NCBI GenBank assembly: GCA_965222075.1
Contig: OZ244937.1
Span: 3,712,001 to 3,776,000 of the forward strand
DNA length: 64,000 bases
DNA from: Candidatus Latescibacterota bacterium
GTDB taxonomy: Bacteria; Latescibacterota; UBA2968; GCA-2709665
Reading direction: 5' to 3'
Below, one piece after another: positions 2,070-62,538 of the stretch. The translations under genes were made by a program, and so were the position numbers. The stretch's first letter is position 1. Each line of letters opens with the position of its first letter. The notes beneath the pieces are model-generated. The model saw nothing but the letters and a program-made list of their open reading frames with translations. It was not told where the DNA came from and searched no databases.

Positions 2070-2126
2070 TCGGAAAATCACCGGCAACCACCGATGAACA
2101 TCGGTGAATACTGATGAAAAAGCTTC

Positions 2127-3221: not shown

Positions 3222-3257
3222 AGCTGTTTCCTCCTCCCGATATCTGCTGATTCGGGC

Positions 3258-4097: not shown

Positions 4098-4100
4098 CGT

Positions 4101-45690: not shown

Positions 45691-45949
45691 GTCGCTGCCC
45701 CCTCTCATCAGGATTGGCAATATGTATACTTGTGCTCTTTGCTGTAAACGCTTTCTGGATGAGGTATATTAGAAAGTTGTGGACGGGTACAGAAAATGAG
45801 CGTATCCTTGAGTATCAACAAAACCCAAAATCCCTCGGTCGAGGGAGATTCGAGACACCTTCCGGAGACGTCTTCACCTGAGCGCGCAGATGGCTCAGGC
45901 GGGCATCTGCGCCACCCTCCATCCCTCCGAAGAAAGGAGCACCAACCCT

Positions 45950-47002
45950 ATGCAAACCCTCTCCCAACAGGTCAGCCGTCCCGTCTACGACGACCTCGGA
46001 GCGCCCGAACCGATCGAACCGATCTTCGCCGAAGGCACCGACCCCACGCTCGAAGACTGGCAGGACCGGCGCGCGGTCCTGAAAGAACGCTGGAACGCGG
46101 TCCTGGGCACCCCCTCCCTGGACATTTTCGACACGCGCCCGGAAATCATCAACACCTTCGAACAGCCTGCATACCGGGCCACCGTATTCAAACAGCCCAC
46201 CGGACCTGACACCCGCCAGACCCTTCTGCTCATGGAACCCGGGCAGGCGGCCCATTCCCCCCGTCCCGGTATGGTCGTCCCCTTCTACCACCCGGACCCG
46301 ATGGCCGGCATCGACCTGGACACGCAGGAGCCCATCGCCGAAGACCGAAATATCCAGTTCGGCCGCCACCTCGTGCAGCAGGGAAACGTGGTGGTCTGCA
46401 CCGAAGCCTTCCCGTTCAACACCGTACCCGAACCCGCAGACAACAAAAGCTTTTCCTGGTGGCAGGCCGCCGCAGACAAACTGCTGAAAGACCATCCCAA
46501 CTGGACCGGCATCGCCAAACTCGTCTGGGACGCCAGCCGGGCCGTCGACCTCCTGCTGGACCAGCCCGACATCGACCGGAAACGAATCGGCATCATGGGA
46601 CACTCCCTGGGCGGAAAAATCGCCTTCTACACCGGCGCGCTCGACGAACGCATCCAGGCCATTGTCGCCTCCGACTTCGGCATGGGGTTCAACTTCACCA
46701 ACTGGGATGCCCCCTGGTACCTGGGCGACCAGATCCACCGCCCCGACTTCACCCTTGCCCACCACCACCTCCTGGCCCTGCACGCCCCCCGGTCCTTCTT
46801 CCTCTTCGGCGGCGAAGCGGACCGCCCTGCAACCTGGCAGTACATCAACGAAGCCAAAAAAGTCTACGCCCTCTACGGCAAACCGGACGCCGTCGGCTTC
46901 TTCGACCACGCCTCCGGCCACCGCCCCACCGGTGAATCGTTGAAAATCGCCTACCGCTGGCTGGCGGAACGGTTCGGGCTGGCGGAACAGCCGTGGGAGT
47001 GA
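45950..47002 (+). CDS. Alpha/beta hydrolase (dienelactone hydrolase/esterase-like)
   Basis: AAAGGAG RBS; RAVDLL, IGIMGHSLGGK, DERI, APR, GH. Confidence 0.85.
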   Translation: MQTLSQQVSRPVYDDLGAPEPIEPIFAEGTDPTLEDWQDRRAVLKERWNAVLGTPSLDIFDTRPEIINTFEQPAYRATVFKQPTGPDTRQTLLLMEPGQAAHSPRPGMVVPFYHPDPMAGIDLDTQEPIAEDRNIQFGRHLVQQGNVVVCTEAFPFNTVPEPADNKSFSWWQAAADKLLKDHPNWTGIAKLVWDASRAVDLLLDQPDIDRKRIGIMGHSLGGKIAFYTGALDERIQAIVASDFGMGFNFTNWDAPWYLGDQIHRPDFTLAHHHLLALHAPRSFFLFGGEADRPATWQYINEAKKVYALYGKPDAVGFFDHASGHRPTGESLKIAYRWLAERFGLAEQPWE

Positions 47003-47048
47003 CCCCTCCCCCGGCCCCTCCCCGAAACGGGGAGGGGAGAGCGTGCTC

Positions 47049-47210
47049 CTAAGAGGGTTGGGAGGTAGAGCGTTTCTTCAGTTGGGCCACGATACGACTC
47101 AGAACACCTTCAAAATTCTGTCTTATATCTTCATTCTGGATTCGTATAACCTTCAAACCACGAGATGCAAGAATACCATCACGTTCTGCAACAATATTTC
47201 TCTTCCTCAT
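47049..47210 (-). pseudogene. DUF559 copy with 231-bp in-frame internal deletion
   Basis: MRKRNIV is joined directly to AERDGILASRG; the catalytic core is missing. Confidence 0.8.
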
Positions 47211-47381
47211 CCTACAACCGTCACCTCCTCCGCCTTTCTCCCCCTTTCCTCTCAGGAAAGGGGGCCGGGGGGATAGGTCACTCAGTCCGATGGCTGGCAG
47301 AACAGTTCGGGCTGGCGGAACAGCCGTGGGAGTGACCCCTCCCCCAGCCCCTCCCCGAAACGGGGAGGGGAGAGGGTGCTC

Positions 47382-47774
47382 CTAAGAGGGTTGGGAGGTA
47401 GAGCGTTTCTTCAGTTGGGCCACGATACCACTCAGAACACCTTCAAGATTCTGTCTTATATCTTCATTCTGGATTCGTATAACCTTCAAACCACGAGATG
47501 CAAGAATACCATCACGTTCTGCATCGTACTTGACCTGCTGATGATGAACACCGCCATCCACTTCGATCACCAATCCAGCAGCATGACAGTAGAAATCCAC
47601 AATAAATCCATCAATGACCTGCTGCCGACGAAAGTGAAACCCCTCCAGTCGATTGGCGCGAAGACGTTCCCAGAGAATGCCCTCTTCTTCCGTCATCTGA
47701 CCACGAAGCATTCTTGCCCGCTTCACCTTATCCAGATCCACTCTCTGCCCAATAACAATATTTCTCTTCCTCAT
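47382..47774 (-). CDS. DUF559 (Vsr-like) endonuclease domain protein
   Basis: RARMLR..MT.EE..LW..LR, FRRQ..I..FIVDFYC, VIEVDGGVH, D.ERD..L...GLKVIR; GGAGGAGG RBS. Confidence 0.9.
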   Translation of the reverse strand: MRKRNIVIGQRVDLDKVKRARMLRGQMTEEEGILWERLRANRLEGFHFRRQQVIDGFIVDFYCHAAGLVIEVDGGVHHQQVKYDAERDGILASRGLKVIRIQNEDIRQNLEGVLSGIVAQLKKRSTSQPS

Positions 47775-47945
47775 CCTACAACCGTCACCTCCTCCGCCTT
47801 TCTCCCCCTTTCCTCTCAGGAAAGGGGGCCGGGGGGATAGGTCACTCAGTCCGATGGCTGGCAGAACGGTTCGGGCTGGCGGAACAGCCGTGGGAGTGAC
47901 CCCTCCCCCAGCCCCTCCCCGAAACGGGGAGGGGAGAGGGTGCTC

Positions 47946-48338
47946 CTAAGAGGGTTGGAAGGTAGAGCGTTTCTTCAGTTGGGTCACGATACCACTCAGA
48001 ACACCTTCAAGATTCTGTCTTATATCTTCATTCTGGATTCGTATAACCTTCAAACCACGAGATGCAAGAATACCATCACGTTCTGCATCGTACTTGACCT
48101 GCTGATGATGAACACCGCCATCCACTTCGATCACCAATCCAGCAGCATGACAGTAGAAATCCACAATAAATCCATCAATAACCTGCTGCCGACGAAAGTG
48201 AAATGCCTCCAGTCGATTGGCGCGAAGACGTTCCCAGAGAATGCCCTCTTCTTCCGTCATCTGACCACGAAGCATTCTTGCCCGCTTCACCTTATCCAGA
48301 CCCACTTTCTGCCCAATAACGATATTTCTTCTCCTCAT
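47946..48338 (-). CDS. DUF559 (Vsr-like) endonuclease domain protein, second intact copy
   Basis: Near-identical to 47382..47774; start MRRRNIV after the GGAGGAGG RBS. Confidence 0.9.
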   Translation of the reverse strand: MRRRNIVIGQKVGLDKVKRARMLRGQMTEEEGILWERLRANRLEAFHFRRQQVIDGFIVDFYCHAAGLVIEVDGGVHHQQVKYDAERDGILASRGLKVIRIQNEDIRQNLEGVLSGIVTQLKKRSTFQPS

Positions 48339-48405
48339 CCTACACCCGTCACCTCCTCCGCCTTTCTCCCCCTTTCCTCTCAGGAAAGGGGGCCGGGGGG
48401 ATAGG

Positions 48406-50820
48406 TCACTCATACCGCAGCGCATCCACCGGATTCGCCAGTGCAGCCTTCATAGACTGGGCGCCCACCGTCAGAAGGGCGATCCCCAGCGCCAGAACGC
48501 CGCATAGGATGAAGATTTCCGGTCCGGGATCAATCCGATACGCAAAGTCCTGAAGCCATCTGTTCATCACATAGTAGGCAGCCGGCCAGGCCAGCAGATT
48601 GGCAACCACAACAAGCTTTGCAAATTCTCCGGAAAGCAGGAGAACGAGGTTGGATACTGAAGCCCCCAGCACCTTACGGATACCGACCTCCTTGGTTCGC
48701 CGCGTTACGGAGAGAGACGCCAGCCCAAGAAGTCCCAGACAGGAAATCAGGATCGCAAACAGAAAGGTGTACCCCGTAATTCTGATCCATCGGTCTTCAT
48801 TCTGGTACTGGCGAACGAGATTATCTTCGAGGAAGGAATACTGAAACGGCTGGTCCAACGCGACAGCCTCCCACGTCTTCTTCAGAAAGGCGATAGTGCC
48901 GGCAATGTCCTCGGGCTGGATCCGGATCAGTACGAAAGGCCCATACGACCGGGGTCCAGTGTGCAGCAGCAACGGCTGAATTCCCCTGTGCAGGGAATCG
49001 ATATGGAAATCCCTTACAACGCCGATGACGGTCAGTTCTCCCAACTTCTCCCAGTCCAGATTTTTCAGGGTCTTCCCGACGGGATCCTCCCATCCGAGCA
49101 TTCCGGCCAGCTTCTCATTCACAAGCGCGAACGATTGTGGATCGGACGGGGATGTCGGTGAGAAATTCCGTCCTGCAACAAGCTGGATCTTCAGGGTCTC
49201 AAGATAATCGGGATCTACCCGGATGACCCGAACCCTTAGACGCTCGCCGTCTTCTTTTTCCATGCCTATGCCTCTGGATCCGGTCGTAAACGCCCGGTCA
49301 CTGATGGTTGCGCTGACAACCCGAGGAGATTTGGAAACTTCCACTTTGTACCGTTCGCTGACAGCGTCTGAATTCGCCACCATGGCAGGAACAACCACCA
49401 CCTGTTCTTCACGGTACCCCAGATCCTTTTCTCTCAGGTAGTTGAGCTGTTGGACCATCATCGCGGCGCTGATCATCAGTGCGATCGACAGAGCATACTG
49501 CACAACCACCAGCGCACGCGTACCCACGTTTCGCCCCCCAATCCGCACCTGGCCTTTGAGCACCTCTACCGCGTGGAGCCGGGGCAGTACTACGGCCGGA
49601 TAACTGCCCGCCGCAAGTCCTGCAATGCCCACCAGCCCCAGAAGCATGAGCGTTGTTCCCCAACTGTCCAAATAGGAAATGCTCAAATTCTTGCGCGCCA
49701 GATCATTGAAGACGGGCAGAAACATCTCGGCCAGAGCGATTCCCATCACCAGGGCAAACATGCTTAAAAGCAACGCCTCGCCCCAGAACTGCTGCATAAG
49801 CTGCCTCCGCTGCGCTCCCAGCACTTTTCGCATTCCCACCTCTCGTGCGCGTCCCACGGACCGGCCGACCGCCAGAGTCATATAATTGATACACGCGATT
49901 GCAAGCACCAGAAGCGCAAGCCCGGAAAGCAAGTAGGAGTAGACCACGTTGCCATTGGCTTCGTACGAACTTCTGACCTCAGAATTCAGGTAAACGTCCC
50001 GCAGCGGCTGGAGGCGCAGCAAAAACCCGTCCTCTGCGTCCCTCACGTGACCGTGCGTTTTGAACAACCCGATCCTGTCTCCCAGGTGCTTCTCGGCAAA
50101 GGGCGGAAACACCGCTTCCAAAGCCTCCGCATCCTGTCCTTCCACAAGCTGCACGTACATAGAGGCATTCCCACCACCCCAATCCGTATTCACAGCATAA
50201 TACCTGTGGTGTTCAATCGGGATCAGAAGACCGAATTTCAGGCTGGAGGTCTCGGGAACGTCTCGCATCACCCCCGTGACGGTAAAGTCCTGAGCTCTAA
50301 ACGACAGCGGTTTCCCCAGAGCCGCAGCGTAACCGTCTTCCAAATTTCCAAAGAGCTTGCGCGCGACCGTCTCGCTGATCACCACACCATCCGGCTGGCG
50401 CAGGGCCGTCGCAGGGTCTCCCGCCAGGAGTGGGAAGGAGAATATCTCCAGAAAGTCCGCGTCCACCAGGCCGAAGGATTCCCGAAAGGCGATCTCCTGA
50501 TATGAAACCTGCGTCCTGGAGCGCATAAATCCGCTCGCCCGGATAACACCCGGAAACTCCTCCCGTAGCGCTGCCGCAAGAGAAGCAGGGTGAAGCGTGG
50601 AAAACCTGACACTGCCATCAGGCCTGGTCTCCCGTACAATCACCCGAAAAATCCGGTCAGAATTCTCGTGGAAGGCATCGTACTGCCATTCGTGCCGGAC
50701 GAACAGGAAGATCAGAATACAACACGCAAGGCCGACCGCCAGTCCAAACACGTTGATGAACGCATACAGCTTCTGCCGGAGCACGTTTCGCACAGCCACG
50801 ATCAGGTAGTTTCGGAACAT
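48406..50820 (-). CDS. MacB/FtsX-type ABC permease
   Basis: MFRNYLIVAVRN...RAREVGMRK...RRTKEVGIRK...NPVDALRYE. Confidence 0.93.
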   Translation of the reverse strand: MFRNYLIVAVRNVLRQKLYAFINVFGLAVGLACCILIFLFVRHEWQYDAFHENSDRIFRVIVRETRPDGSVRFSTLHPASLAAALREEFPGVIRASGFMRSRTQVSYQEIAFRESFGLVDADFLEIFSFPLLAGDPATALRQPDGVVISETVARKLFGNLEDGYAAALGKPLSFRAQDFTVTGVMRDVPETSSLKFGLLIPIEHHRYYAVNTDWGGGNASMYVQLVEGQDAEALEAVFPPFAEKHLGDRIGLFKTHGHVRDAEDGFLLRLQPLRDVYLNSEVRSSYEANGNVVYSYLLSGLALLVLAIACINYMTLAVGRSVGRAREVGMRKVLGAQRRQLMQQFWGEALLLSMFALVMGIALAEMFLPVFNDLARKNLSISYLDSWGTTLMLLGLVGIAGLAAGSYPAVVLPRLHAVEVLKGQVRIGGRNVGTRALVVVQYALSIALMISAAMMVQQLNYLREKDLGYREEQVVVVPAMVANSDAVSERYKVEVSKSPRVVSATISDRAFTTGSRGIGMEKEDGERLRVRVIRVDPDYLETLKIQLVAGRNFSPTSPSDPQSFALVNEKLAGMLGWEDPVGKTLKNLDWEKLGELTVIGVVRDFHIDSLHRGIQPLLLHTGPRSYGPFVLIRIQPEDIAGTIAFLKKTWEAVALDQPFQYSFLEDNLVRQYQNEDRWIRITGYTFLFAILISCLGLLGLASLSVTRRTKEVGIRKVLGASVSNLVLLLSGEFAKLVVVANLLAWPAAYYVMNRWLQDFAYRIDPGPEIFILCGVLALGIALLTVGAQSMKAALANPVDALRYE

Positions 50821-50879
50821 GGAGATTCCCTCTCAAAAGACGTGAAATGTGAGAGGCTCACCACCCCTGGAAGAAGCCA

Positions 50880-50966
50880 GAACACCGGAGAAAGGGTGGA
50901 TGGGTCCGCCTTTCTCCCCCTTTCCTCTCAGGAAAGGGGGCCGGGGGGATAGGTCACTCATACCGC
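50880..50966. repeat. 87-bp direct repeat containing a solo right-end hairpin (copy 1)
   Basis: One mismatch to 51780-51866, exactly 900 bp away. Confidence 0.9.
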
Positions 50967-51006
50967 TGGCAGTCAGCGGTCAGGGCTCAGCGGAAATCGC
51001 TGCGTC

Positions 51007-51684
51007 TCACTCAGTTTGTTCATCCTTATCGATCCACCCGTCCAGCAGGTGAATCACCTTGCGACCATACGACGCGTTCTTCTCCGAATGCGTCGCCTGG
51101 ACAATCGTCGTCCCTCCCTGATTCAATTTCGTGAACAGCGCCATCACCTCTTCCCCCTGTGCCGAATTCAGATTCCCGGTCGGCTCATCGGCCAAGATCA
51201 GCTTCGGACTCGTGATCACCGCCCTGGCAACTGCCACGCGCTGCTGCTCCCCGCCGGAAAGCTGATTCGGAAACAGGTCTTTCTTCGCCACAATATTGAA
51301 CCGGTCCAGCATATCGCAAACCAGTCCCCTGCGCTCCGATCCCCTGACCTTCTTGTACAGCAGCGGCGTCTCCAGGTTCTCGTACACCGTCAACTCGTCA
51401 ATCAGGTGGTAACTCTGGAACACAAACCCGATATGGTGCTTGTGCAGATCCGTCCGCTTCCGCTCGTTCAACTTGTGCGTCGGTTCGTCGAAAAAGTAAT
51501 ACGCCCCATTCGACGGCTCATCGAGCATTCCCAGGATATGCAGCAGCGTGGACTTCCCGGCGCCCGACGGCCCCATAATCGAAACGAACTCCCCCTCCTC
51601 GATTTCAAGGTCGATATTCCTCAGCACGAAGGTCTTCACAAAACCCGTTGAGTAGTATTTCTCGATCTCTCGAAGCCGAATCAT
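51007..51684 (-). CDS. MacB/LolD-type ABC ATP-binding protein
   Basis: [25 protein letters not shown]; AAGGAGG RBS before ATG 51684. Confidence 0.93.
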
Positions 51685-51779
51685 CGTGTGCCTCCTTAAG
51701 GCGCATGGCATTTGGTTAATTGGTATTTCAGCGATTTTTGAAACGGGTCGGACAAAGTGTGGAGAACGGATTCTTGCCT

Positions 51780-51866
51780 GAACACCGGAGGAAGGGTGGA
51801 TGGGTCCGCCTTTCTCCCCCTTTCCTCTCAGGAAAGGGGGCCGGGGGGATAGGTCACTCATACCGC
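51780..51866. repeat. 87-bp direct repeat containing a solo right-end hairpin (copy 2)
   Basis: Overlaps the stop codon of permease 51854..54226. Confidence 0.9.
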
Positions 51867-54226
51867 AGCGCATCCACCGGATTCGCCGTCGCCGCCCGGA
51901 TCGCCTGCACGCTCACGGTCAACAGTGCGACAAACAGGGCCAGCCCTCCGGACGCTGCAAATACCCACCAGCCGATGTCGATGCGATAGGCAAAATCCTG
52001 CAGCCAACGGTCCAGGATGTAATACGCGATTGGCGAAGCCACCACAAAGGCGATAAGCACCAGCCGGGCGAAGTCCCTGGACAACAGGAGCACAATATTC
52101 TCCACCGTCGCCCCCAGCACCTTCCGGATGCCGATCTCCTTCGTCCGCTGCTGGGCCGTAAAAGAAGCAAGCCCGAACAGCCCCAGGCAGGCAATGAAAA
52201 TGGCCAGTCCCGAAAAAACCTCGAACACCCGGGCCATGCGCTGCTCGCTCTCGTAAAGCCGCAGGTAGTCCCCCTCCAGAAAGGAATACGCGAAGGGCCG
52301 ATGGGGCGCGAACTTCTCCCAGACCTGCCGCACGGCAGAAACAGCATCGGCCACGTTGCCGGGCTGCAACCGGACGGCAACATAAGAACGGCCCCAGCGG
52401 AGAAACGGAAGCACCAGGGGTTGGACCCGGTGGCGGAGCGACCCGTAGTGGAAGTCCTCCACAACGCCGATGACCCTGCCTTCTCGGCCTGTCAGCCTCA
52501 TTCGCTTGCCGACCGGCTCTTCCCACCCGAGCGCCGAGGCGGCAGACTGGTTGATGAGAAACGCCGTGGAGTCCGAGGCGAAGTCTCCGGGAGCGAAGTT
52601 CCGACCCCGGACGACCCGCAACCCCAGCGCTTCGGTATAATGCTCGTCGACCATCACGTAGGTAAGTGAGGTCTCCTCGTAGTTGGCAGGCTGCTCAGGC
52701 ACGAACCGCGTGGAATCAAAGCGGTGGCCCGGCAGGCCCTCGGTAACCGAGGCCACAGCCACCTGCGCAAGCGCTCCGAGCCGCTCCCTGAATGCAGCAA
52801 CCTGCCTGCCCAGACTCCTGGCCCCATGCACCACAAGCACGTGTTCTTTATCGAACCCGAGCCGCTTGTGCTGCATATAGCGGAGTTGCTCGTGAACAAC
52901 CAGCGTGCCGATGAGCATTCCAATAGATATGCAGAACTGCGCCACAACCAGCCCGTTGCGCAGCCGGTCCCCGCCGAAGCGACCTGCAACACGTCCCCTG
53001 AGCACCTGCACAGGCCAGAAGGACGACAGGAAAAATGCCGGATACATCCCTGCCAGCACGGCCACCGCCGTCACAATTCCGCCCAGCGCCAGAACCGCGA
53101 ACGGCGAACTCAGGCTTCCGGTTGTCAGCTGTTTGCCGACAAAGCCGTTGAGGAACGGCAACCCCAGTTCGCTCAACCCCAGCGCCAGAACCACCGCCAG
53201 CGCCACATACAGCGACGACTCGACGAGAAACTGGCGAACGAGCTGCGCACGCTGGGAACCCAGAACTTTCCGAACACCCACCTCCCGGGCGCGGTTGGTC
53301 GAACGCGCTGTGGACAGGTTCACAAAATTGATACACGCCAAAAGCAGGATAAAGACGGCAACAAGAGAAAAAATATAAACGTTCAAAATATCGCCGGTCG
53401 GCTCCAGTTCCAACTCCAGATGCGAGTGCAGATGAATATCCGTCAACGGCTGCAACAGGAACCGGCTGTAGCCTCCTGCACGGGAAAAACGCTTCTCCAG
53501 TCCGCGACGCTCGACATGTTCCCGGAGCTTCGTCTCCACCCCGGACGCTTTTGTCCCCTCCCTCAAAACCACATACGTATAGACGGTGGCCGACCCCCAA
53601 CCCTTCTGTCGTCGTTCGACGATCGGAAGCGTTCTCAAAGGTGCGAGAAAATCGAAGTGAAAATGGGACTGGAGAGGAAACCCCCTCACCACGCCCGTGA
53701 CGCGCAGAAGCGTACCGTCGTTGAGTTCCAGCGGCTGTCCGAACGGGTCCTGGTCCCGGAAATACCGCCGCGCCGTCTCTTCCGTAATCACAACCGCATC
53801 CGGATCGCGCAGCGCCGTTTCCGGATCTCCCTCGACGAAGGGCGCGGTGAACACATCGAAAAAACCCTCCTCCACATAAAAAAAGTCACCTTCAATCACG
53901 TACTCCCGGCCGTGGCGCAGCGTCCGGCGCTCACGCCTCATACGCACCGTCCGCTCCACCTCCGGTAAATCCGCCAGCGCTTCAGCGACGGGAATAGGCC
54001 CTTTAGGAATCGTCCATTCATTGTCGCCGTAGCGAGCGTCCCACAGAACGCGATAGATCCGGTCCGCCTTTTCGTGGAACCGGTCGTAGCTCACCTCGTC
54101 CAGCACGAACAGCAGGATCAGGATGCAGCACGCCATCCCCACGGCCAGGCCCAGAATGTTGATGGCCGAATAGACCCGGTGCCGCAGCAAATTCCGCACC
54201 GCAACCTTCAGATCATTCTTAAACAT
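51854..54226 (-). CDS. MacB/FtsX-type ABC permease
   Basis: MFKNDLKVAVRNL, LACINF, RAREVGVRK, QRTKEIGIRK, NPVDALRYE. Confidence 0.93.
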   Translation of the reverse strand: MFKNDLKVAVRNLLRHRVYSAINILGLAVGMACCILILLFVLDEVSYDRFHEKADRIYRVLWDARYGDNEWTIPKGPIPVAEALADLPEVERTVRMRRERRTLRHGREYVIEGDFFYVEEGFFDVFTAPFVEGDPETALRDPDAVVITEETARRYFRDQDPFGQPLELNDGTLLRVTGVVRGFPLQSHFHFDFLAPLRTLPIVERRQKGWGSATVYTYVVLREGTKASGVETKLREHVERRGLEKRFSRAGGYSRFLLQPLTDIHLHSHLELELEPTGDILNVYIFSLVAVFILLLACINFVNLSTARSTNRAREVGVRKVLGSQRAQLVRQFLVESSLYVALAVVLALGLSELGLPFLNGFVGKQLTTGSLSSPFAVLALGGIVTAVAVLAGMYPAFFLSSFWPVQVLRGRVAGRFGGDRLRNGLVVAQFCISIGMLIGTLVVHEQLRYMQHKRLGFDKEHVLVVHGARSLGRQVAAFRERLGALAQVAVASVTEGLPGHRFDSTRFVPEQPANYEETSLTYVMVDEHYTEALGLRVVRGRNFAPGDFASDSTAFLINQSAASALGWEEPVGKRMRLTGREGRVIGVVEDFHYGSLRHRVQPLVLPFLRWGRSYVAVRLQPGNVADAVSAVRQVWEKFAPHRPFAYSFLEGDYLRLYESEQRMARVFEVFSGLAIFIACLGLFGLASFTAQQRTKEIGIRKVLGATVENIVLLLSRDFARLVLIAFVVASPIAYYILDRWLQDFAYRIDIGWWVFAASGGLALFVALLTVSVQAIRAATANPVDALRYE

Positions 54227-54908: not shown

Positions 54909-54920
54909 AGCTTACTCCTC

Positions 54921-56174
54921 TCAATCTTTTAAGATGAGCTTTTCTATCTCCTCATAATGCTCATACGACGACGTCACAACGCGTTCCTCCGGCTCCAGCC
55001 CCTCCAGCACCTCGAAAAACTCCGGATTCTGCCGGCCGATCCGCAGCGGCCGACGTACCGCAAACGCCCCCGACGGGTCCACCACAAACACCCAGTTCCC
55101 TCCCGTGGTCTGATAAAATCCTCCCCTGGCCAGGAGCACGGCCTCGGAAAGGTCCCCCAGGGCCAGCCGGATGTGGAGCGTCTGTCCCCGGCGGATGTCT
55201 TCGGGCATTTCTCCTGCAAACTCGAGATCAACCTCAAACCGGCCGTCTAAAATCTCCGGATAGACCTTCTTGATCACCAGGTGGTAGGTCTTCCCGGCAA
55301 GATCGAACATACCGGTCTGCCCCGGATTGATCCGATGGATATAAAACTCATCGATGTCCGCCCGGGCCTTAAACCCGTCCAGCACATCGACCTGCCCCAA
55401 ACGCTGTCCTTTGGACTTCAACTCCCCGATCTCCGCATTCAGCGACGTCAACTGCCCGCTCACCGGCGCCTTTAAAATCAAATTTTCCAGATTCCGTTTC
55501 ACAGCCTTCAGATTCAACTCTAACTTTTTAACCGAAGCCTCCATATGTGCAATCTGGCCCTGGCGGTACAGAGAATCCTGCCTCACGGTCTGAACCATAA
55601 ACTCCTGCCGCTTCAACTGGTATTCGTAATTTTCCTTGCTTTCCGCATAATCTTTCCTTGCAATCAAATTCCGCTTCATCAATTCCTCATGTCTTAAATA
55701 TTCCCGTCTCGCCTGCTGAACCTGGTATTCAATATTAATCAATTCCTCCTGCCGTCTAATCGTCTGCTGTTCCATATTAATGCGGGTATTCTCCATATTA
55801 TTAATCTGTTCGAATAAAACGGCCTCCTGGTTCATCACGCTCAGTTCCAGCATCGGGTCCGACAGCCTCAGAAGCGGCTCCCCTTTGGTGACCATACTCC
55901 CCTCTTCCACAAAGACCTCCTCCACCTGTCCGCCGACCAGAGCATCCAGATAGATCGTCTGAATGGGCAGCATCGTCCCCCGAACCGGAATAAACTCCTG
56001 AAACGGCCCCCGCTCAACCGTAGAAATCGTAATCCGCTCGACCTTCACGTTCAGCTTCGCACTGTGGTCCCCCAGCAAGAATTCGTAGAGAACCGCACCA
56101 ACAAAAAGCCCGGCCAGGGCCATCCCCGCAATCCGTCTCGGGGGCCACCGGCGCTTCCGGATCTTCCGGTCCAT
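54921..56174 (-). CDS. Efflux periplasmic adaptor (membrane fusion protein, MacA/HlyD-like)
   Basis: MDRKI + TM anchor, GGQVEEVFVEEG, coiled coil, APVSGQL, IGRQNP..EVLEGL. Alternative upstream start 56303. Confidence 0.88.
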   Translation of the reverse strand: MDRKIRKRRWPPRRIAGMALAGLFVGAVLYEFLLGDHSAKLNVKVERITISTVERGPFQEFIPVRGTMLPIQTIYLDALVGGQVEEVFVEEGSMVTKGEPLLRLSDPMLELSVMNQEAVLFEQINNMENTRINMEQQTIRRQEELINIEYQVQQARREYLRHEELMKRNLIARKDYAESKENYEYQLKRQEFMVQTVRQDSLYRQGQIAHMEASVKKLELNLKAVKRNLENLILKAPVSGQLTSLNAEIGELKSKGQRLGQVDVLDGFKARADIDEFYIHRINPGQTGMFDLAGKTYHLVIKKVYPEILDGRFEVDLEFAGEMPEDIRRGQTLHIRLALGDLSEAVLLARGGFYQTTGGNWVFVVDPSGAFAVRRPLRIGRQNPEFFEVLEGLEPEERVVTSSYEHYEEIEKLILKD

Positions 56175-56355
56175 CGCCAGCCCTTCTTCCGTTCCCCCCG
56201 TCGACGACCGGCTCTGCGAACCACCGGCTCCGGACTCCGGACTCCAGTTCACAATCTTGTCCACCAGATCGTCTTTGGCACGCCCTGGTTCTTCGCTCAA
56301 CACAATTCACCTCATCATTTTTTCATCCGTACACCGATCCTCAACTTCTCACTTC

Positions 56356-56976
56356 CTACAAACTCCCCGTCACCCCCAACCGCTCAACCTCTCCTCTCAA
56401 CCGATGCCGCCCCCGATACAGCCAGACCTTCAACGTTCCGACCGGCACCTGGAGCTCCTCCACAATCTCATGATAAGATCGTTCCCTTACATAATGCAAC
56501 CAGACCGCCTCGCGCTGCCGGTCCGGCAGCGCCTGGATGCTCTGCATCACAATCTCCCGGCGCTCCTTCCGCACCATCACGGCTTCGGGATCTTCGTGAG
56601 GCGCCGGGCGCCACCGCGCCTGAAGCGCGGGTACGGCATCGTCTACTTCATCCAGCCAATTTCTCTGCGTCCGCCGGGTCCGCAAATAGGATGTACACAC
56701 ATTCAGAGCAATGCGCGTCAGCCAGGTAGAGAAAGTGGCCTGCCCCCGAAAATTGGCCAGCCCCTGAAAGGCCTTCATAAAAACCATCTGGACCAGGTCC
56801 TCTGTCTCATCTCCCTTCCTTGTGCACCGATGCACAATCGCACGCACCCGGTCACGGTGCGTCCTGTAAAGAACTTCAAAAGCCCCGTCATCTCCCGCAA
56901 GCGCCCGATCGATCAGCGCCGCATCCGATTCAGGCGCACACTGCAATGTTTCAGGATCGTTTTTCTTTCCCCTCAC
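56356..56976 (-). CDS. ECF RNA polymerase sigma factor
   Basis: EDLVQMVFMKAF, FSTWLTRIALN, LPDRQREAV, SYHEI...VPVGTLK; GAGGGAG RBS before GTG 56976. Confidence 0.9.
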   Translation of the reverse strand: MRGKKNDPETLQCAPESDAALIDRALAGDDGAFEVLYRTHRDRVRAIVHRCTRKGDETEDLVQMVFMKAFQGLANFRGQATFSTWLTRIALNVCTSYLRTRRTQRNWLDEVDDAVPALQARWRPAPHEDPEAVMVRKERREIVMQSIQALPDRQREAVWLHYVRERSYHEIVEELQVPVGTLKVWLYRGRHRLRGEVERLGVTGSL

Positions 56977-57041
56977 AACAGAACTCCCTCGGTTTTCATA
57001 TCCCGGATGCCTGCAAAACACCGAACTTCTGTTCAGAAGAA

Positions 57042-57162
57042 AGCGACAACCGTGCCAACACTGGTTTTTTATTATTTTTCAACTGCTTATATATGTTTCC
57101 CCCAAAAAAACGATCAAAAAAGTGTCCGCTGGCGATACACAAGTGTCCGCTAACGGACACTT
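57042..57162 (-). promoter_or_regulatory. Sigma-54 (-24/-12) promoter with IHF-like site and tandem enhancer-like palindromes
   Basis: TTGGCACGGTTGTCGCT at 57058-57042 (GG-N10-GC); TTTCAACTGCTTA in the AT tract; AAGTGTCCG-CTAA-CGGACACTT at 57141-57162 plus a degenerate copy at 57121-57140. Confidence 0.7.
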
Positions 57163-57192
57163 CACACTGCACCACTCCCACACACAGGCCAA

Positions 57193-57889
57193 ACATCAAA
57201 CTCCCCGTCACCTCCTCCGCCTTTCTCCCCCTTTCCTCTCAGGAAAGGGGGCCGGGGGGATAGGTCACTCAGTCCGCTGGCTGGCAGAACAGTTCGGGCC
57301 GGCGGAACAGCCGTGGGAATGACCCCTCCCCCAGCCCCTCCCCGAAACGGGGAGGGGAGAGCGTGCTCCTAAGAGGGTTGGAAGGTAGTTGGCGCGAAGA
57401 CGTTCCCAGAGAATGCGCTCTTCTTCCGTCATCTGACCACGAAGCATTCTTGCCCGCTTCACCTTATCCGGATCCACTCTCTGCCCAATAACGATATTTC
57501 TCTTCCTCATCCTACACCCGTCACCTCCTCCGCCTTCCTCCCCCTTTCCTCTCAGGAAAGGGGGCCGGGGGGATAGGTCACTCAGTCCGCTGGCTGGCAG
57601 AACAGTTCGGGCCGGCGGAACAGCCGTGGGAATGACCCCTCCCCCAGCCCCTCCCCGAAACGGGGAGGGGAGAGGGTGCTCCTAAGAGGGTTGGCGAGAA
57701 GGCGTTCCCAGAGAATGCCCTCTTCTTCCGTCATCTGACCACGAAGCATTCTTGCCCGCTTCACCTTATCCAGGTCCACTCTCTGTCCAATAACGATATT
57801 TCTTTTACTCATCCTGCACCCCTCACCTCCCCCGCCTTTCTCCCCCTTTCCTCTCAGGAAAGGGGGCCGGGGGGATAGGTCACTCATAC
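57193..57889. mobile_element. DUF559 element cluster: solo right end plus two core-deleted units (313 and 302 bp)
   Basis: Right ends finish at 57270, 57583 and 57885; deletions of 251 and 262 bp relative to the 564-bp unit. Confidence 0.85.
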
Positions 57890-60219
57890 CTTAGCGCATC
57901 CACCGGGTTCGCCCGTGCCGCACGCATTGCCTGCGACCCTACCGCCAGCAGCACGATCGCCAGCATCAACACCCCACCCAAAACGAACGTCCCGACCCCC
58001 AGCTCAATCCGATACGCAAAATCCTGCAACCACCGCTCCATCGCATAATACGCCACCGGCCAGGCGATGACACTGGCAACAGCCACGAGCACGAGGAACT
58101 CCCTGGAAAGCAGGGACAGGATATTGGGAACCGTGGCGCCCAGCGCCTTCCGAATGCCGATCTCCTTCGTCCGCCGCGCCACCGCAAGCGCCGTCAGCCC
58201 GAACGCGCCGAGACAGGCGATGAAAACCGCGAACAGCGCGGAATACTGTACGATTCGGTTCCAGCGTTCCTCCTTCCTGTACTGCCGGTCCACCTCCTCG
58301 TCAAGAAAAGAATACTGAAACGGAAGGTCCGGTGCGACCTCCTGCCACTTCTCCTCCAAAAAGGCCAGCGTGCCCGGGATGTTCTCCGGGCGGATCCGGA
58401 TTAGCAATCGGGTAAACCCCGGACTGAGCCTCAACACCGCCGGCCCGATCTTGTGGTGCAGGGAGCGAAAATGGAAGTCCTGCACCACGCCGATCACAGT
58501 AATATCCCGCTTGTTCATCCGCAGCATCCTGCCCGCCACCGGCCTGTCCCACCCCAAACGCCGGACCAGGGCCTCGTTCACGATAATGGAAGCCCTGGAA
58601 TCCGTATTCCGTGTATCGAAATCCGCTCCCTCCAGGAGGGAGATATCCATCGTCTCCAGGAAGTCATAGCCGACAAAGACCATCTCAACACCCATTTCAT
58701 TCCCTTCATGCTCAATGCTGTTCCTGTACCTCGTCCTGCTGCTCAGCGCGTTGCTGGTCCCTGTCACGCCCAGAACCCCGTGGTGTCCCAGCAACTCGTT
58801 CCGGTACACCCCGGGTAGATCCGAATCTCGCTCCCGCAGGTCCCAAATATGGATGTACAGGACGTGATCACTCTCAAAGCCCAGCGGTTTTGTCCTCAGA
58901 TACTCAAGTTGCCGGGCCATCAGCAGCGCACTGACCACCAGGAAGACGGACAGGGCAAGCTGGAAAACCACAAGCGCCCGGCCGAACAGGCTGGACCCTC
59001 CGAGGCTGAGCCTTCTTTTCAACACCGCAACGGACTGAAACCCTGACAGTACGAAGGCCGGGTAGCTGCCTGCGGCCAGCCCGACGGCCAGCGCCAGTCC
59101 GAGCAAAAAGACCAGGCCCACGCCATCCGCCTGATCGGCCAGGGCGAGGTCCTGACCGGCCAGGCTGTTGAAGGCCGGCAGGAGGAGTTCCGCCAGAGCG
59201 ACCCCGGCCACCAGGGCCATCGCGCTCAACAGCATCGACTCTCCCAGGAACTGCTTCATCAGCTGCGTCCGAGACGCACCCACCACCTTGCGCATCCCCA
59301 CCTCCCGGGCGCGGGCGAACGACCGGCCCACAGCCAGAGTCATAAAGTTCACGCACGCAATCACCAGCACCAGCAGGGCAATTCCCAGAAGAATATAAGA
59401 AAAGGCCGGATTGCTCGCGGGTTTGGGTCCCCGGGTGCCCGGATTGAGATGCACCTCCAGGAGCGGCTGGAGGCCCATCCTGGCGTCCCGCTTTTCTCCC
59501 AGCCACATCTTTAACAACTCCGGAAACCGTTCCTCCAGATCGGCCGGACGTCTGTGCTCCGGAAGCAGCAGGTAGGTCTGGATATCTTCCTGGCTCCAGC
59601 CCCTGAGCTCACCCCCGGCCTCGAACGGAGCCAGAAAATCGAACCGGATGCTGGAGTTCTTCGGAACGGGCTTCGCAATCCCGGTCACAACAAAATCCCA
59701 AACCACCGGCGGGCGGCCCCATATCTCAACGGAAAGGACTTTGCCCAGGGGGTCTTTATCTCCAAAGTACTTCCGTGCCGCCGCCTCGGTGATCACCACA
59801 GAGTACGGACCTTCCAGCACCGTCGTCGGGTCTCCCTTCACCAGGGGAAAGGTGAACACCTCCAGGATGGCCGGATCGACAAAGCGGAAACTTTCTCGAA
59901 ACGACCGGTCCCCCTGCATAACAGAGAAAGAGCCCCAGCCAATCCTGACGCTCCGGACGTCCGGAAACGCCTCCGCCAGCGCCGGCCCCAGCGCGTCCGA
60001 CGTAACGCCCGACGGCTCGAACCCGGTATCATCCATATAGACCCTGTAGATCCGATCCGCGTTCTCGTGGAACGCGTCGTACGTCCACTCCCGCCGGACG
60101 AACAGAAACGTCAGCACACAAAACGCAATCCCGATCGAAAGACCCGTCACGTTGATAAAAGAATAGACCTTATGGCGCACCAGATTGCGAAACGCTACTT
60201 TCAGATAATTTCCGAGCAT
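57880..60219 (-). CDS. MacB/FtsX-type ABC permease
   Basis: MLGNYLKVAFRNL, IACVNF, RAREVGMRK, RRTKEIGIRK, NPVDALRYE. Confidence 0.93.
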   Translation of the reverse strand: MLGNYLKVAFRNLVRHKVYSFINVTGLSIGIAFCVLTFLFVRREWTYDAFHENADRIYRVYMDDTGFEPSGVTSDALGPALAEAFPDVRSVRIGWGSFSVMQGDRSFRESFRFVDPAILEVFTFPLVKGDPTTVLEGPYSVVITEAAARKYFGDKDPLGKVLSVEIWGRPPVVWDFVVTGIAKPVPKNSSIRFDFLAPFEAGGELRGWSQEDIQTYLLLPEHRRPADLEERFPELLKMWLGEKRDARMGLQPLLEVHLNPGTRGPKPASNPAFSYILLGIALLVLVIACVNFMTLAVGRSFARAREVGMRKVVGASRTQLMKQFLGESMLLSAMALVAGVALAELLLPAFNSLAGQDLALADQADGVGLVFLLGLALAVGLAAGSYPAFVLSGFQSVAVLKRRLSLGGSSLFGRALVVFQLALSVFLVVSALLMARQLEYLRTKPLGFESDHVLYIHIWDLRERDSDLPGVYRNELLGHHGVLGVTGTSNALSSRTRYRNSIEHEGNEMGVEMVFVGYDFLETMDISLLEGADFDTRNTDSRASIIVNEALVRRLGWDRPVAGRMLRMNKRDITVIGVVQDFHFRSLHHKIGPAVLRLSPGFTRLLIRIRPENIPGTLAFLEEKWQEVAPDLPFQYSFLDEEVDRQYRKEERWNRIVQYSALFAVFIACLGAFGLTALAVARRTKEIGIRKALGATVPNILSLLSREFLVLVAVASVIAWPVAYYAMERWLQDFAYRIELGVGTFVLGGVLMLAIVLLAVGSQAMRAARANPVDALRYE

Positions 60220-60334
60220 ACGTCCCATCCCTCCAAAAGCGTGACTTGCAGAACCTCAGGACTTCATTCAGCCATTCGCCACCAGCCATCTCAGCTCATA
60301 GCCGGACACTTTCGTCCTGAGAAGCCGTTTTAAA

Positions 60335-60660
60335 ATTCCCGGTGAGTTCCCGACACGCCCGCTCACGCGTCTCGCCTCTGGGATCCCCCCACCGGCGCGC
60401 CTGCGGGCTGGCGCCCCTAACTTGCCGACTCCTCCGGTTTGGTGTGAGAGGAAGGGGCTTTTCCGCGCAGATCCCCCCAGCACCTCCGCCCAAAAACGCC
60501 CAAAAGGTCCGCTGGGCACAAACGCCTGCTTACACCACAGGGGCAGTTCGCGGAAAAGCAGCCCCCGCGGCGTTTGAGCGGCGCCCTTCTTTTTCGGCCT
60601 TTTTCTTGGGCGAACAAGAAAAAGGCCAGGAGTAAAAGAACCGTTGAACCCGGGGATCTA
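60335..60660. other. Structured non-coding intergenic segment
   Basis: 13-bp hairpin ggcctttttcttg-ggcgaa-caagaaaaaggcc (60596-60627); long-range pairing ggggcttttccgcg / cgcggaaaagcagcccc. Confidence 0.4.
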
Positions 60661-60689
60661 CCCAAAGGTTATTTTCCAAGCAGCAGCTT

Positions 60690-61508
60690 CTAAAACTCCC
60701 GCAAACGAATCGAACCATTCACCGCCTTCAAATAAAGCAGGCGCCCGCCCCCGTTTATATCTCCGTCAACCGATTTGCTGATGCGGCCCTTCACCGTAAC
60801 CGGAAAATCCGTCTCGATATGCCCGTTCACCGTCGCTGCTTTCAGGTGCGCCTTGAACCCCCTGGGCAATGCAACCTCAATGCTGCCATTTGTCGTTGAA
60901 GCCCGAATTTCATGCTCATCCTGGCCCCTTTTGGAAAACGCCGCCTCAATCCTGCCGTTCGTCGTACTCGCCTGAATCGCGCCCTGAATCTCCGAGAGCC
61001 GGATATTCCCATTCTTCGTACTCGCCTGGATCGCCCCTTTAACCTCTGCAAACCGGATGCGGCCGTTGGCCGTTTCCGCCTCAATCGCTCCTGAAACAGC
61101 ATCGACCTGGATGCCTCCATTAACCGATTCCAATTCCAGGTCGATCTCTTTGGGCACCGTCAACGTATAACTCACGCTCACGCTCCGATTCCCTCGCAAG
61201 CGCAGCTCCGTCTGGATATCGATCCGGTCCGCCGTCCGGTCGATCCGCACCTCCGTCTTCTCCAGCAGCTTCCGCGCCTCTTCCTCGCTGCGGGCACGCG
61301 CTTTCTTTTTCGCCTGCACCTTCACCTCATTTCGATCCCAGGATCCAATCGTAATTCCCCCGTTCACGTTCACAAGCGTCAGTCGTCCTCCCGGCTGAAA
61401 CTGCATCGAACGCTCGATAACCTCCTGCTCCGTATACTCACCGGCGCCACAGACAACAGGAACAAGACAGAGACTGAACATCGCAACCAGAATGAAAATC
61501 GCCATCAT
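60690..61508 (-). CDS. DUF4097 beta-strand repeat (putative adhesin-like) secreted protein
   Basis: Signal peptide; repeated NVNGGI, SVNGGI, TANGRI, TTNGRI, TVNGHI units. Confidence 0.85.
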   Translation of the reverse strand: MMAIFILVAMFSLCLVPVVCGAGEYTEQEVIERSMQFQPGGRLTLVNVNGGITIGSWDRNEVKVQAKKKARARSEEEARKLLEKTEVRIDRTADRIDIQTELRLRGNRSVSVSYTLTVPKEIDLELESVNGGIQVDAVSGAIEAETANGRIRFAEVKGAIQASTKNGNIRLSEIQGAIQASTTNGRIEAAFSKRGQDEHEIRASTTNGSIEVALPRGFKAHLKAATVNGHIETDFPVTVKGRISKSVDGDINGGGRLLYLKAVNGSIRLREF

Positions 61509-61534
61509 AGGACCTTAACCTCCTGTAATGTGAG

Positions 61535-62538
61535 ACATCAAACTCCCCGTCACCTCCTCCGCCTTTCTCCCCCTTTCCTCTCAGGAAAGGGGGCCGGGGG
61601 GATAGGTCACTCAGTCCGCTGGCTGGCAAAACAGTTCGGGCCGGCGGAACAGCCGTGGGAATGACCCCTCCCCCAGCCCCTCCCCGAAACGGGGAGGGGA
61701 GAGCGTGCTCCTAAGAGGGTTGGAAGGTAGAACATTTCTTCAGTTGGGTCACGATACCACTCAGAACACCTTTTGGCGCGAAGACGTTCCCAGAGAATGC
61801 CCTCTTCTTCCGTCATCTGACCACGAAGCATTCTTGCCCGCTTCACCTTATCCAGATCCACTCTCTGCCCAATAACAATATTTCTCTTCCTCATCCTACA
61901 ACCGTCACCTCCTCCGCCTTTCTCCCCCTTTCCTCTCAGGAAAGGGGGCCGGGGGGATAGGTCACTCAGTCCGCTGGCTGGCAAAACAGTTCGGGCCGGC
62001 GGAACAGCCGTGGGAATGACCCCTCCCCCGGCCCCTCCCCGAAACGGGGAGGGGAGAGCGTGCTCCTAAGAGGGTTGGAAGGTAGAGCGTTTCTTCAGTT
62101 GGGTCACGATACCACTCAGAACACCTTCAAGATTCTGTCTTATATCTTCATTCTGGATTCGTATAACCTTCAAACCACGAGATGCAAGAATACCATCACG
62201 TTCTGCGTCGTATTTGACCTGCTGCTGATGAACACCGCCATCCACTTCGATTACCAATCCAGCAGCATGGCAGTAGAAATCCACAATAAATCCATCAATG
62301 ACCTGCTGCCGACGAAAGTGAAACCCCTCCAGCCGATTGGCGCGAAGACGTTCCCAGAGAATGCCCTCTTCTTCCGTCATCTGACCACGAAGCATTCTTG
62401 CCCGCTTCACCTTATCCAGATCCACTCTCTGCCCAATAACAATATTTCTCTTCCTCATCCTACAACCGTCACCTCCTCCGCCTTTCTCCCCCTTTCCTCT
62501 CAGGAAAGGGGGCCGGGGGGATAGGTCACTCATACCGC
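61535..62538. mobile_element. DUF559 element cluster: solo right end, one core-deleted unit (355 bp), one intact unit (564 bp)
   Basis: Right ends finish at 61612, 61967 and 62531; same left flank (acatcaaactccccgtcacc) as 57193. Confidence 0.85.
62066..62458 (-). CDS. DUF559 (Vsr-like) endonuclease domain protein, third intact copy
   Basis: Near-identical to 47382..47774. Confidence 0.9.
   Translation of the reverse strand: MRKRNIVIGQRVDLDKVKRARMLRGQMTEEEGILWERLRANRLEGFHFRRQQVIDGFIVDFYCHAAGLVIEVDGGVHQQQVKYDAERDGILASRGLKVIRIQNEDIRQNLEGVLSGIVTQLKKRSTFQPS

Follow-up and report, generated by a model that had tools for sequence, protein, structure and literature searches.

A stretch of 64,000 nucleotides of a Candidatus Latescibacterota bacterium (GenBank assembly GCA_965222075.1, contig OZ244937.1, positions 3,712,001 to 3,776,000 of the forward strand), hereafter called the window, was found to carry arrays of a short unit in which a small gene of the DUF559 nuclease family stands between two structured repeats, and some of these repeats lie exactly on the stop codons of permease genes. 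The locus is best explained as copies of a small selfish cassette, a promoter-less DUF559 gene bracketed by two inverted G/C-rich triplex-motif repeats (TMs), which would have been copied by recombination, the underlying repair being provoked by the nuclease, and we give this explanation as a whole roughly an even chance of being correct. Position numbers refer to the whole window unless preceded by G000, which denotes the source genome (one contig of 5.36 Mb); G001, G002, G004 and the like are genomes of relatives, and L001, L002, L105 and L106 are loci encoding DUF559 relatives, L001 being from the Latescibacterota.

Repeat finding together with BLAST identified eleven copies of the right end (R), finishing at 47283, 47847, 48411, 50959, 51859, 57270, 57583, 57885, 61612, 61967 and 62531, with a core of 55 nt that is 98-100% identical across all eleven in BLAST comparisons. 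Seven copies of the left end (L) were located by BLAST, with GAGTGACC heads (the head being the outer, GACC-bearing part) at approximately 46997, 47330, 47894, 57317, 57630, 61659 and 62014. Tandem copies are spaced at 564 bp, as obtained by repeat finding. Three DUF559 genes, each of 130 amino acids and on the minus strand, are intact (47382-47774, 47946-48338 and 62066-62458), and four units carry internal deletions (unit positions 240-470, 119-369, 108-369 and 161-369). Each end folds into a DNA hairpin, one of 10 bp in L and one of 11 bp in R (z -2.5 and -2.8 against shuffled sequences), and the outer ~23 nt of L and R are imperfect inverted repeats. The counts, the period and the paired hairpin ends agree with a preliminary description of the window that had been made from the sequence alone. 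The deletions 108-369, 119-369 and 161-369 end at a common right point, unit position 369/370 (window 47653, 57389, 57691 and 61773), and may be nested derivatives of one deletion or the products of an endpoint hot spot.

The same description had taken the hairpin-ended element as the moving unit, which the composition of the units contradicts. The 46 nt separating each R from the next L, overlooked there, duplicate the 3'-terminal sequence of the convergent esterase gene; this tail is present in all units of the genome, including those of two arrays outside the window, and the units additionally hold ~7 nt of a permease 3' end. The tail is native to the esterase: the esterase orthologs of four relatives (G001, 94% identical; G004, 88%; G005 and G008, 64-67%) retain ...WLA..F.L.EQ.W to the end, and the two most distant of them, those of G005 and G008, have no repeat behind the tail. 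At several junctions, e.g. GGTCACTC-ATACCGC-TGGCTG, a permease end is fused to the esterase tail at a common TACCGC, a microhomology of 6 nt. The heptamer just outside R (for example at 47284-47290, 57271-57277 and G000 3,830,094-3,830,100, and in L001) varies more than the rest of the unit, occurring as ATACCGC, AGTCCGC, AGTCCGA and AGCTTGC, with both main forms in the array at G000 3,838,406-3,840,265. Each array follows the formula R-(tail-L-gene-R)n, with one R more than the number of units, and hence eleven R are found with seven L. The 564-bp unit is not bounded by its hairpins; its borders lie in host DNA. Since the units contain flanking DNA of both the esterase and a permease, the arrays arose by duplication and recombination across host DNA and not by hairpin excision, and the amplification and local spread took place through homology-dependent copying, not cut-and-paste. 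Between permeases 1 and 2, two 91-nt direct repeats (R plus 36 nt each, 98% identical) flank an extra ABC ATPase gene, which appears to have been inserted or duplicated via recombination in R. The source genome holds five arrays, all between G000 3,758,954 and 3,840,265 (81 kb of the 5.36 Mb), and two of them are beyond the window (G000 3,830,013-3,830,193 and 3,838,406-3,840,265). The features of the window are listed below.

43255 to 45720, minus strand: fifth ADOP-like permease gene, with no repeat at its stop; the unoccupied comparison
45890 to 47002, plus strand: gene of an esterase-like alpha/beta hydrolase, from whose last ~46 nt (...WLAERFGLAEQPWE-TGA) the tail derives and whose TGA lies within the first L head
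46952 to 47283, no strand assigned: array 1, unit 1, with the native tail, L, a DUF559 remnant (240-470 deleted) and R
46997 to 47037, plus strand: first of the seven L, of triplex-motif type, with head GAGTGACCCCTCCCCC followed by the 10-bp hairpin
47284 to 47847, no strand assigned: array 1, unit 2, 564 bp, with a copied esterase tail, L, intact DUF559 and R
47382 to 47774, minus strand: intact DUF559 (Vsr-fold) nuclease gene, 130 amino acids
47848 to 48411, no strand assigned: array 1, unit 3, 564 bp, 97.9% identical to unit 2, with intact DUF559 at 47946-48338 (minus strand); its R holds the stop of permease 1
48357 to 48411, plus strand: R, an 11-bp hairpin followed by CCGGGGGGATAGGTCACTC; on the minus strand it reads as stop codon, hairpin and the DUF559 ribosome-binding site
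48406 to 50820, minus strand: ADOP-like permease 1, whose last 30 nt are the same as in permeases 2 and 4
50876 to 50966, plus strand: solo R within a 91-nt direct repeat, 98% identical to 51776-51866
51007 to 51684, minus strand: extra ABC ATPase gene between the two 91-nt repeats
51776 to 51866, plus strand: solo R on the stop of permease 2, with no DUF559 gene
51854 to 54226, minus strand: ADOP-like permease 2
57205 to 57885, no strand assigned: array 2, R and two units with deleted DUF559 (57271-57583 and 57584-57885), the last R lying on the stop of permease 3
57880 to 60228, minus strand: ADOP-like permease 3, matching at 27/30 in its last 30 nt
61547 to 62531, no strand assigned: array 3, R, a deleted unit (61613-61967) and an intact unit (61968-62531) with DUF559 at 62066-62458 (minus strand)
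62526 to 63998, minus strand: ADOP-like permease 4, running off the window

Permeases 1-4 (stops at 48406, 51854, 57880 and 62526) all end ...ANPVDALRYE-TGA, with the TGA inside R. They carry the Pfam MacB_PCD domain and two FtsX domains and match TIGR03434 (ADOP) over profile positions 6-803 of 803 (E 1.9e-88) but at 297.5 bits against a cut-off of 622, and are therefore referred to as ADOP-like. The four proteins are mutually 39-60% identical while the R copies behind them are 100% identical, from which the repeat is judged to be far younger than the permease paralogs. In their last 30 nt permeases 1, 2 and 4 agree at 30/30 and permease 3 at 27/30, while the 120 nt before these are 60-69% identical; a paralog without the repeat at G000 3,472,405, which also has the ANPVDALRYE end and stops at TAG, agrees with the occupied permeases at 22-23/30. 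When R was copied, ~30 nt at the 3' ends of permeases 1, 2 and 4 were thus converted along with it. These observations support the earlier proposal that the repeat spread after the divergence of the paralogs by converting their conserved 3' end, and the fifth permease, which ends GAT GAG TAA, indeed lacks the repeat.

The preliminary description went further and proposed a hairpin-bounded, transposon-like element that recognises the stop codons of MacB/ADOP permeases. The identical R exactly at the stops of four permeases as divergent as those above would fit such an element, as would a locus of a Gemmatimonas metagenome-assembled genome (L002) in which a permease 43-47% identical to those of the window ends NPVEALRYE-TGA in a very similar head and hairpin, with a DUF559 gene (65%) coming after it. 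The esterase tail within the units largely refutes it, hairpins not being the borders of units that enclose esterase and permease flanking DNA. Occupancy does not follow permease ends either: R is found on four of the eight ADOP-like permeases of the source genome, all four in one 16-kb cluster, and among the four empty ones is the paralog with the identical ANPVDALRYE end. Two arrays stand at non-permease sites (one between oxidoreductase and secreted-protein genes, the other beside a BFN-domain gene), the same head is found on the stops of the esterase and of three unrelated genes, and no target-site duplication accompanies the three pairs of empty and filled sites described below. Recognition of permease stop codons is therefore improbable.

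A further dispersed mosaic repeat, with ~60 partial copies in the source genome (117 BLAST pieces), has a copy in the window at 60353-60582, where contig depth peaks. Other copies are found at G000 1,712,601-1,713,420, 1,769,639-1,770,263, 3,039,582-3,040,225 and more than 50 other places, and three copies have captured R with ~40 nt of a permease 3' end (a GGTCACTA variant).

The heads explain why the repeats are found on gene ends. TM heads hold stop codons in two frames, either TGA two bases before ACC (offset -2) or TAA inside ACCTAA (offset +3). In the source genome a stop at offset -2 ends eight real genes, namely the esterase, the four permeases and three unrelated genes of 361-533 codons, against a background of 0.57% of 20,000 random positions, the loose pattern also taking in many chance C-rich sites. 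In 80 other loci encoding DUF559 relatives, 190 hairpin-bearing heads were examined, 57 of which have an incoming reading frame that ends close by, and 35 of these 57 frames stop at -2 (11, T(G/A)A in front of CC) or +3 (24); the TAA of the latter is often the stop of the DUF559 gene itself. Comparison with relatives provided three pairs of empty and filled sites, none with a target-site duplication. At G000 3,302,585 the G001 allele has TAA and a 12-nt spacer to the ribosome-binding site, and the G000 allele has T followed by GACC..., its TGA being supplied by the head. At G000 4,869,465 the G004 gene is five codons longer and ends in TAA. At G000 4,574,765 a 105-nt doublet lies between TGACCT and the ribosome-binding site of the next gene and is missing in G001 and G004. 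One empty allele already has GACCT beside the insertion point, for which no explanation was found. Heads can thus replace the last codons of genes and commonly do so, which accounts for the apparent docking on gene ends as a property of the repeat class and not of these permeases. A scan of array 1 gave no promoter and no terminator sites, a weak result as the promoters of this organism may differ. The lack of a promoter-like site there and the ribosome-binding site that R places before DUF559 would fit expression of the gene by read-through from the host gene.

Arrays of 564-bp units are hard for assemblers, and no public contig bridges any of the arrays, so that the number of units per array rests on one assembly. 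An artefact of mis-assembly is nevertheless the least probable of the explanations considered and can hardly be credited, given that the copies differ by substitutions and by four distinct deletions, that units bearing the same tail occur in the relative L001, and that the genome is a single 5.36-Mb contig. Public short-read contigs from four runs, each of a different study, align with high identity to the unique flanks and break off at the borders of the repeats, the behaviour expected of a real multi-copy repeat; examples are contig records ending at 46965, 46980, 47011, 57222 and 57237 and others starting at 48410, 51858 and 57861. The contig joints listed connect paralogous ABC genes, and their sides are short.

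L and R share one architecture: behind a (T)GACC head come a C-rich run and 1-3 nt, then a pyrimidine arm that is separated by a loop from a purine arm, and the head mirrors the arm; the arms here are CCCCTCCCC and CCCCCTTTCCT. This is the architecture of the G/C-rich intrastrand triplex motifs BoxC, PIT and TMECO, which Holder et al. 2015 (PMC4666352) report from more than 260 genomes and which are found in many phyla including cyanobacteria. According to that paper rearrangement among E. coli strains is greater at TM loci, no mobility genes lie beside these loci, and the origin or mobilising function of the motifs was never found. L and R are assigned on their architecture to this class, in the BoxC/PIT/TMECO type, but not to the E. 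coli subfamily: the exact TMECO consensus of E. coli (PMC4666352) had no match on either strand of the source genome, and a relaxed TM architecture had 42 sites. Head and arm co-vary in mirror fashion, agreeing at 8.03 of 10 positions against 7.40 +/- 0.11 in shuffled pairings (none of 1000 as high) in a sample of 183 motifs with 31 distinct head/arm pairs, relatedness among the sequences overstating the effect. The loop of 2-3 nt between purine arm and head is CC(G), CT, TT or TTA, forms related by transitions (e.g. at 47016 and 47349), and the loop types CCG and TTA are also described for E. coli in the same source (Holder et al. 2015, PMC4666352). As far as that source describes the class, the likeness extends to the order of pyrimidine arm, short loop, complementary purine arm, loop of 2-3 nt and mirroring purine run ending in GTC, and to an intergenic, multi-copy occurrence in many phyla, tied to local rearrangement with no transposase near. 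The repeats of the window differ in forming inverted pairs around a DUF559 gene and in overlapping stop codons. The main text of the TM paper (PMC4666352) does not contain the word 'endonuclease', DUF559 not being among the words looked for, and reports no mobility functions.

Inverted TM doublets without a gene were found at G000 77,889-78,025, 246,907-247,167 and 3,530,915-3,531,245. In the doublets of three regions (G000 3,530,900-3,531,262, 246,890-247,185 and 3,046,050-3,046,345) the heads face outward and decayed DUF559 N-termini (...RNIVIGQ...-like) of lineages other than that of the arrays are still encoded. The second and third of these regions are near-identical duplicates of 296 nt.

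The association of gene and repeat was examined in the 80 loci mentioned above, whose DUF559 relatives are 47-92% identical and come from nine phyla, some loci being cut by contig ends. In 60 of the 80 a TM head lies at most 200 nt from the gene, with an expectation of 0.055 per 400 nt from their own outer flanks, and in 38 direct repeats of at least 50 nt bracket or adjoin the gene. In the Nostocaceae a TM doublet of ~91 nt stands on both sides of the gene at a spacing of ~512 nt, which is the same layout of one unit plus one repeat as in the window. L106 (positions 2100-4350), from another genus (G013), has an array of at least eight units of ~245 nt around a DUF559 gene, each with two TMs and ~90 nt that are single-copy at the syntenic site of the gene-less congeners G006 and G017; an empty site at the level of the cassette was sought in this genus, and the spacer proved to be a mosaic of several repeats with no clean boundary. 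The esterase-permease spacer of G001 holds L, R and the stretches just outside the frame, the frame itself being exactly absent, which fits either a never-occupied target or a deletion. In L002 (490-6384) the permease and DUF559 cassette are part of a MacB-type operon with HlyD-like and ABC genes, TM heads lie on the stops of genes of 812 and 464 codons, and two more TMs are nearby. In L105, an E. coli record, 42 nt of the 3' end of a DUF559 gene 43.5% identical to the window copy are repeated 106 nt downstream and followed by a repeat of TMECO consensus (694-735, 800-842 and 918-962). To judge from these loci, the same package of gene and TM evidently recurs across many phyla. In a quick DUF559 tree most of the grouping follows phylum (10 label changes, where 8 is the minimum), the Cyanobacteria forming one clade and the genes of the window falling with nine Latescibacterota (L001 included) and two Gemmatimonadota. 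Transfer between phyla as the main mode was rejected on this grouping, which indicates spread mainly within lineages. Plasmids and phages are not evident as vehicles: the 26 plasmid and two phage records are all below 60% identity, and several of the 'plasmids' are of chromosome size.

The three intact genes match PF04480 (Pfam DUF559) at E 2e-35 to 2e-34, the best match (E 2.1e-35) scoring 121 bits against a cut-off of 20.6 over profile positions 4-108 of 109; NCBIfam NF007294 is matched at 87.6 bits, under its equivalog cut-off of 218. The nearest solved structure in a sequence search is PDB 3HRL, an 'endonuclease-like protein' (E 7.2e-21, residues 26-122). At least 97% of 81 sequences retain D60, E71, D73, G74, H77 and D84, and the conserved D, E and H residues are taken by us, from their likeness to Vsr and EDxHD enzymes, to be the active site. 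The ratio pN/pS is 0.16-0.45 for the three copies and L001, calculated from few changes. The intact copies are thus evidently under purifying selection while the gene repeatedly decays by deletion, and the nuclease is plausibly active.

Among the enzymes that could move such repeats, those of REP-type systems were considered as well; on this view the repeats would be REP/REPIN-like and moved in trans by a Y1 (HUH) transposase, either RAYT or the TnpA of IS200/IS605, and the inverted doublets do resemble REPINs. The source genome has one intact, IS200-like Y1 gene (G000 2,071,937-2,072,296), whose flanking hairpins are likewise C/T-rich against G/A-rich, and a broken one (G000 3,018,501-3,018,743). 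The intact gene is 1.7 Mb away and looks like a TnpA of IS200 type, with hairpins of its own that are unlike R and L and lack a GACC head; the heads of the TMs carry no GTAG/CGTC tag. Thirty-one relatives, not independent of each other, were compared for Y1 genes and TM heads. Eight TM-rich relatives (25-77 heads) gave no match to PF01797 (Y1) at E<=0.001, and two relatives with strong Y1 genes have at most three heads. Neither the 36 open frames of at least 140 codons in 1-43047 nor the 15 frames of the studied region gave a transposase, integrase or Y1 family. A Y1 route is accordingly rated very unlikely from these comparisons, in line with the preliminary description, which had seen neither a transposase or integrase nor a RAYT near the locus; Y1 does not track TM heads in the relatives. 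Rfam gave only sub-threshold chance matches and no known RNA family (best mir-3718, 29 bits against a gathering score of 78), and PADLOC only partial matches at domain level (DpdF, E 2.7e-9 over 53 residues), which imply no defence system.

In the same 31 relatives, all 10 with a close DUF559 have TM heads (9-174), and none of the eight with at most five heads has one; G002 and G010 have DUF559 fragments, and some genomes have distant DUF559 domains inside long frames. In the genomes compared, no enzyme other than DUF559 accompanies the repeats consistently, but they clearly outlive it.

The explanation preferred here accounts for the locus in the following manner. The cassette between the esterase and permease 1 was tandemly duplicated across host DNA, and the R-(tail-L-gene-R)n topology is what remains when crossing-over is unequal, when a popped-out circle re-integrates or when breaks are repaired out of register between R copies. 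The unit also reached five sites within 81 kb, two of them away from permeases. The DUF559 nuclease would nick or cut at or beside TM heads, and host recombination would then repair the break from another TM-bearing copy, which would amount to homing-like copying without a transposase. That the nuclease itself starts the copying stands at about an even chance when set against a reading in which the repeats are passive.

If the repeats are passive, the TMs would be non-B DNA prone to recombination and slippage, and host recombination and replication alone would have produced the arrays, the conversion tracts and the host DNA carried along. DUF559 would then be a bystander, a Vsr-like nuclease acting in repair or else a gene in decay, that lies by chance between two TMs and is amplified with them. 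The tie of TM loci to rearrangement with no mobility genes nearby, as reported by Holder et al. 2015 (PMC4666352), agrees with this, and so do the unit borders in host DNA at a 6-nt microhomology. Such a bystander is difficult to reconcile with the occurrence of gene and TM together in 60 of 80 loci of nine phyla, far above chance, with the strongly conserved protein core under purifying selection, and with the lack of DUF559 in all eight TM-poor relatives. The decayed DUF559 N-termini of differing lineages within the G000 doublets suggest that the doublets derive from cassettes. Arrays were found where the gene is or was present (G000 and G013), and the syntenic sites in congeners that lack the gene had none, a comparison of two loci only. 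Passive repeats with a bystander gene are considered possible but doubtful.

Several points weigh against the preferred explanation, and some of them speak for the passive one. Thirteen of the 31 relatives have 25-77 TM heads and no close DUF559, so that the repeats persist, and perhaps spread, without it. The gene has been lost from four of the seven window units and from all units of the array at G000 3,838,406-3,840,265, which has no intact DUF559 gene. Arrays and conversion tracts can be obtained from ordinary RecA-dependent recombination or replication slippage at structure-forming repeats, and Holder et al. 2015 (PMC4666352) connect such motifs with rearrangement while invoking no enzyme. 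Outside the arrays each TM of the source genome is unique, with 85-93% identity to R, and no near-identical source copy was found in the genome for the 105-nt doublet gained at G000 4,574,66x; copying from the arrays does not account for recent movement of TMs to unrelated sites, and insertion at sites without flanking homology needs more than homologous repair. VsrA of Caulobacter, a DUF559 protein, is a chromosomal Vsr-like nuclease for which a role in repair is proposed in the portion of the report drawn upon here (PMC12907096).

A wider proposal is advanced only tentatively, namely that DUF559 is the missing partner enzyme of TM repeats, a Vsr-fold nicking nuclease acting at the GACC heads of inverted TM pairs, and that the two form a repair-dependent, transposase-free mobile system common to E. 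coli, cyanobacteria, Chloroflexota and Latescibacterota. Inverted heads would lead to nicks on opposite strands and hence to a staggered break. Its repair could duplicate the TM, giving the TM-gene-TM and R-unit-R layouts seen here and in the Nostocaceae, could carry copies of the cassette and of the adjoining host DNA to further TM sites, and could turn TM loci into rearrangement hot spots. Ends that bear stop codons would let the system live on the last codons of expressed genes.

TM repeats are on record from hundreds of bacterial genomes and have been associated with genome instability, with no origin identified, and the present locus and 80 others now link them to one small nuclease family. 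Within a single genome the cassette has been amplified in tandem, host flanks have been copied, gene ends converted and stops replaced, and the gene has repeatedly decayed. If it is true that the nuclease drives these events, they would represent a class of selfish elements that spreads by provoked repair and not by transposition; even if the nuclease is a passenger, stop-bearing heads account for repeats exactly on gene ends. The nuclease hypothesis is cheap to test because E. coli has a homolog and about two dozen TM repeats. In the literature searched, which did not include subscription journals, no description of a link between DUF559 and TMs was found among the matches listed, nor a paper printing the motifs in the context of bacterial repeats.

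Comparison with known systems helps to place the locus. Caulobacter VsrA shares the DUF559 domain and a nuclease able to damage the DNA of its own cell, but is described as a single chromosomal repair gene tied to a cytosine methyltransferase, and flanking repeats or arrays are not mentioned in the portion of that report used here (PMC12907096). Miniature inverted-repeat transposable elements and insertion sequences resemble the present system in the imperfect terminal inverted repeats of ~23 nt, the gene-less doublets of 100-360 bp and insertion in short operon spacers; the differences are that no transposase of a known class was found in the window, that there is no target-site duplication at the three pairs, and that the multiplied units are bounded in host DNA and not at the inverted repeats.

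REPs carry a GTAG/CGTC tag. REP/REPIN-RAYT systems and the locus have in common short structured repeats that occur singly and as inverted doublets, bracket one small enzyme gene and outnumber, in their gene-less form, the gene-bearing copies. The enzyme here is a PD-(D/E)xK nuclease and not an HUH transposase, the tag is absent, the copies number tens and not hundreds per genome, and no correlation with Y1 was found in the relatives compared.

Homing endonuclease genes include that of I-Bth0305I, a free-standing Vsr-like (EDxHD) homing endonuclease. This enzyme has been placed in the Vsr/DUF559 clade with PDB 3r3p (Steczkiewicz et al. 2012, PMC3424549), whereas the sequence search for the DUF559 protein of the window gave 3HRL and not 3R3P. 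The present cassette is further distinguished by having no intron or intein and by a putative target that is a dispersed structured repeat instead of one conserved gene. The exact absence of the frame from G001 may be a case of presence or absence at one site, or else a deletion. The cassette shares with homing endonuclease genes a small gene of Vsr fold, co-conversion of a 30-nt flank, the presence of flanking DNA inside the units, and cycles of gain and decay.

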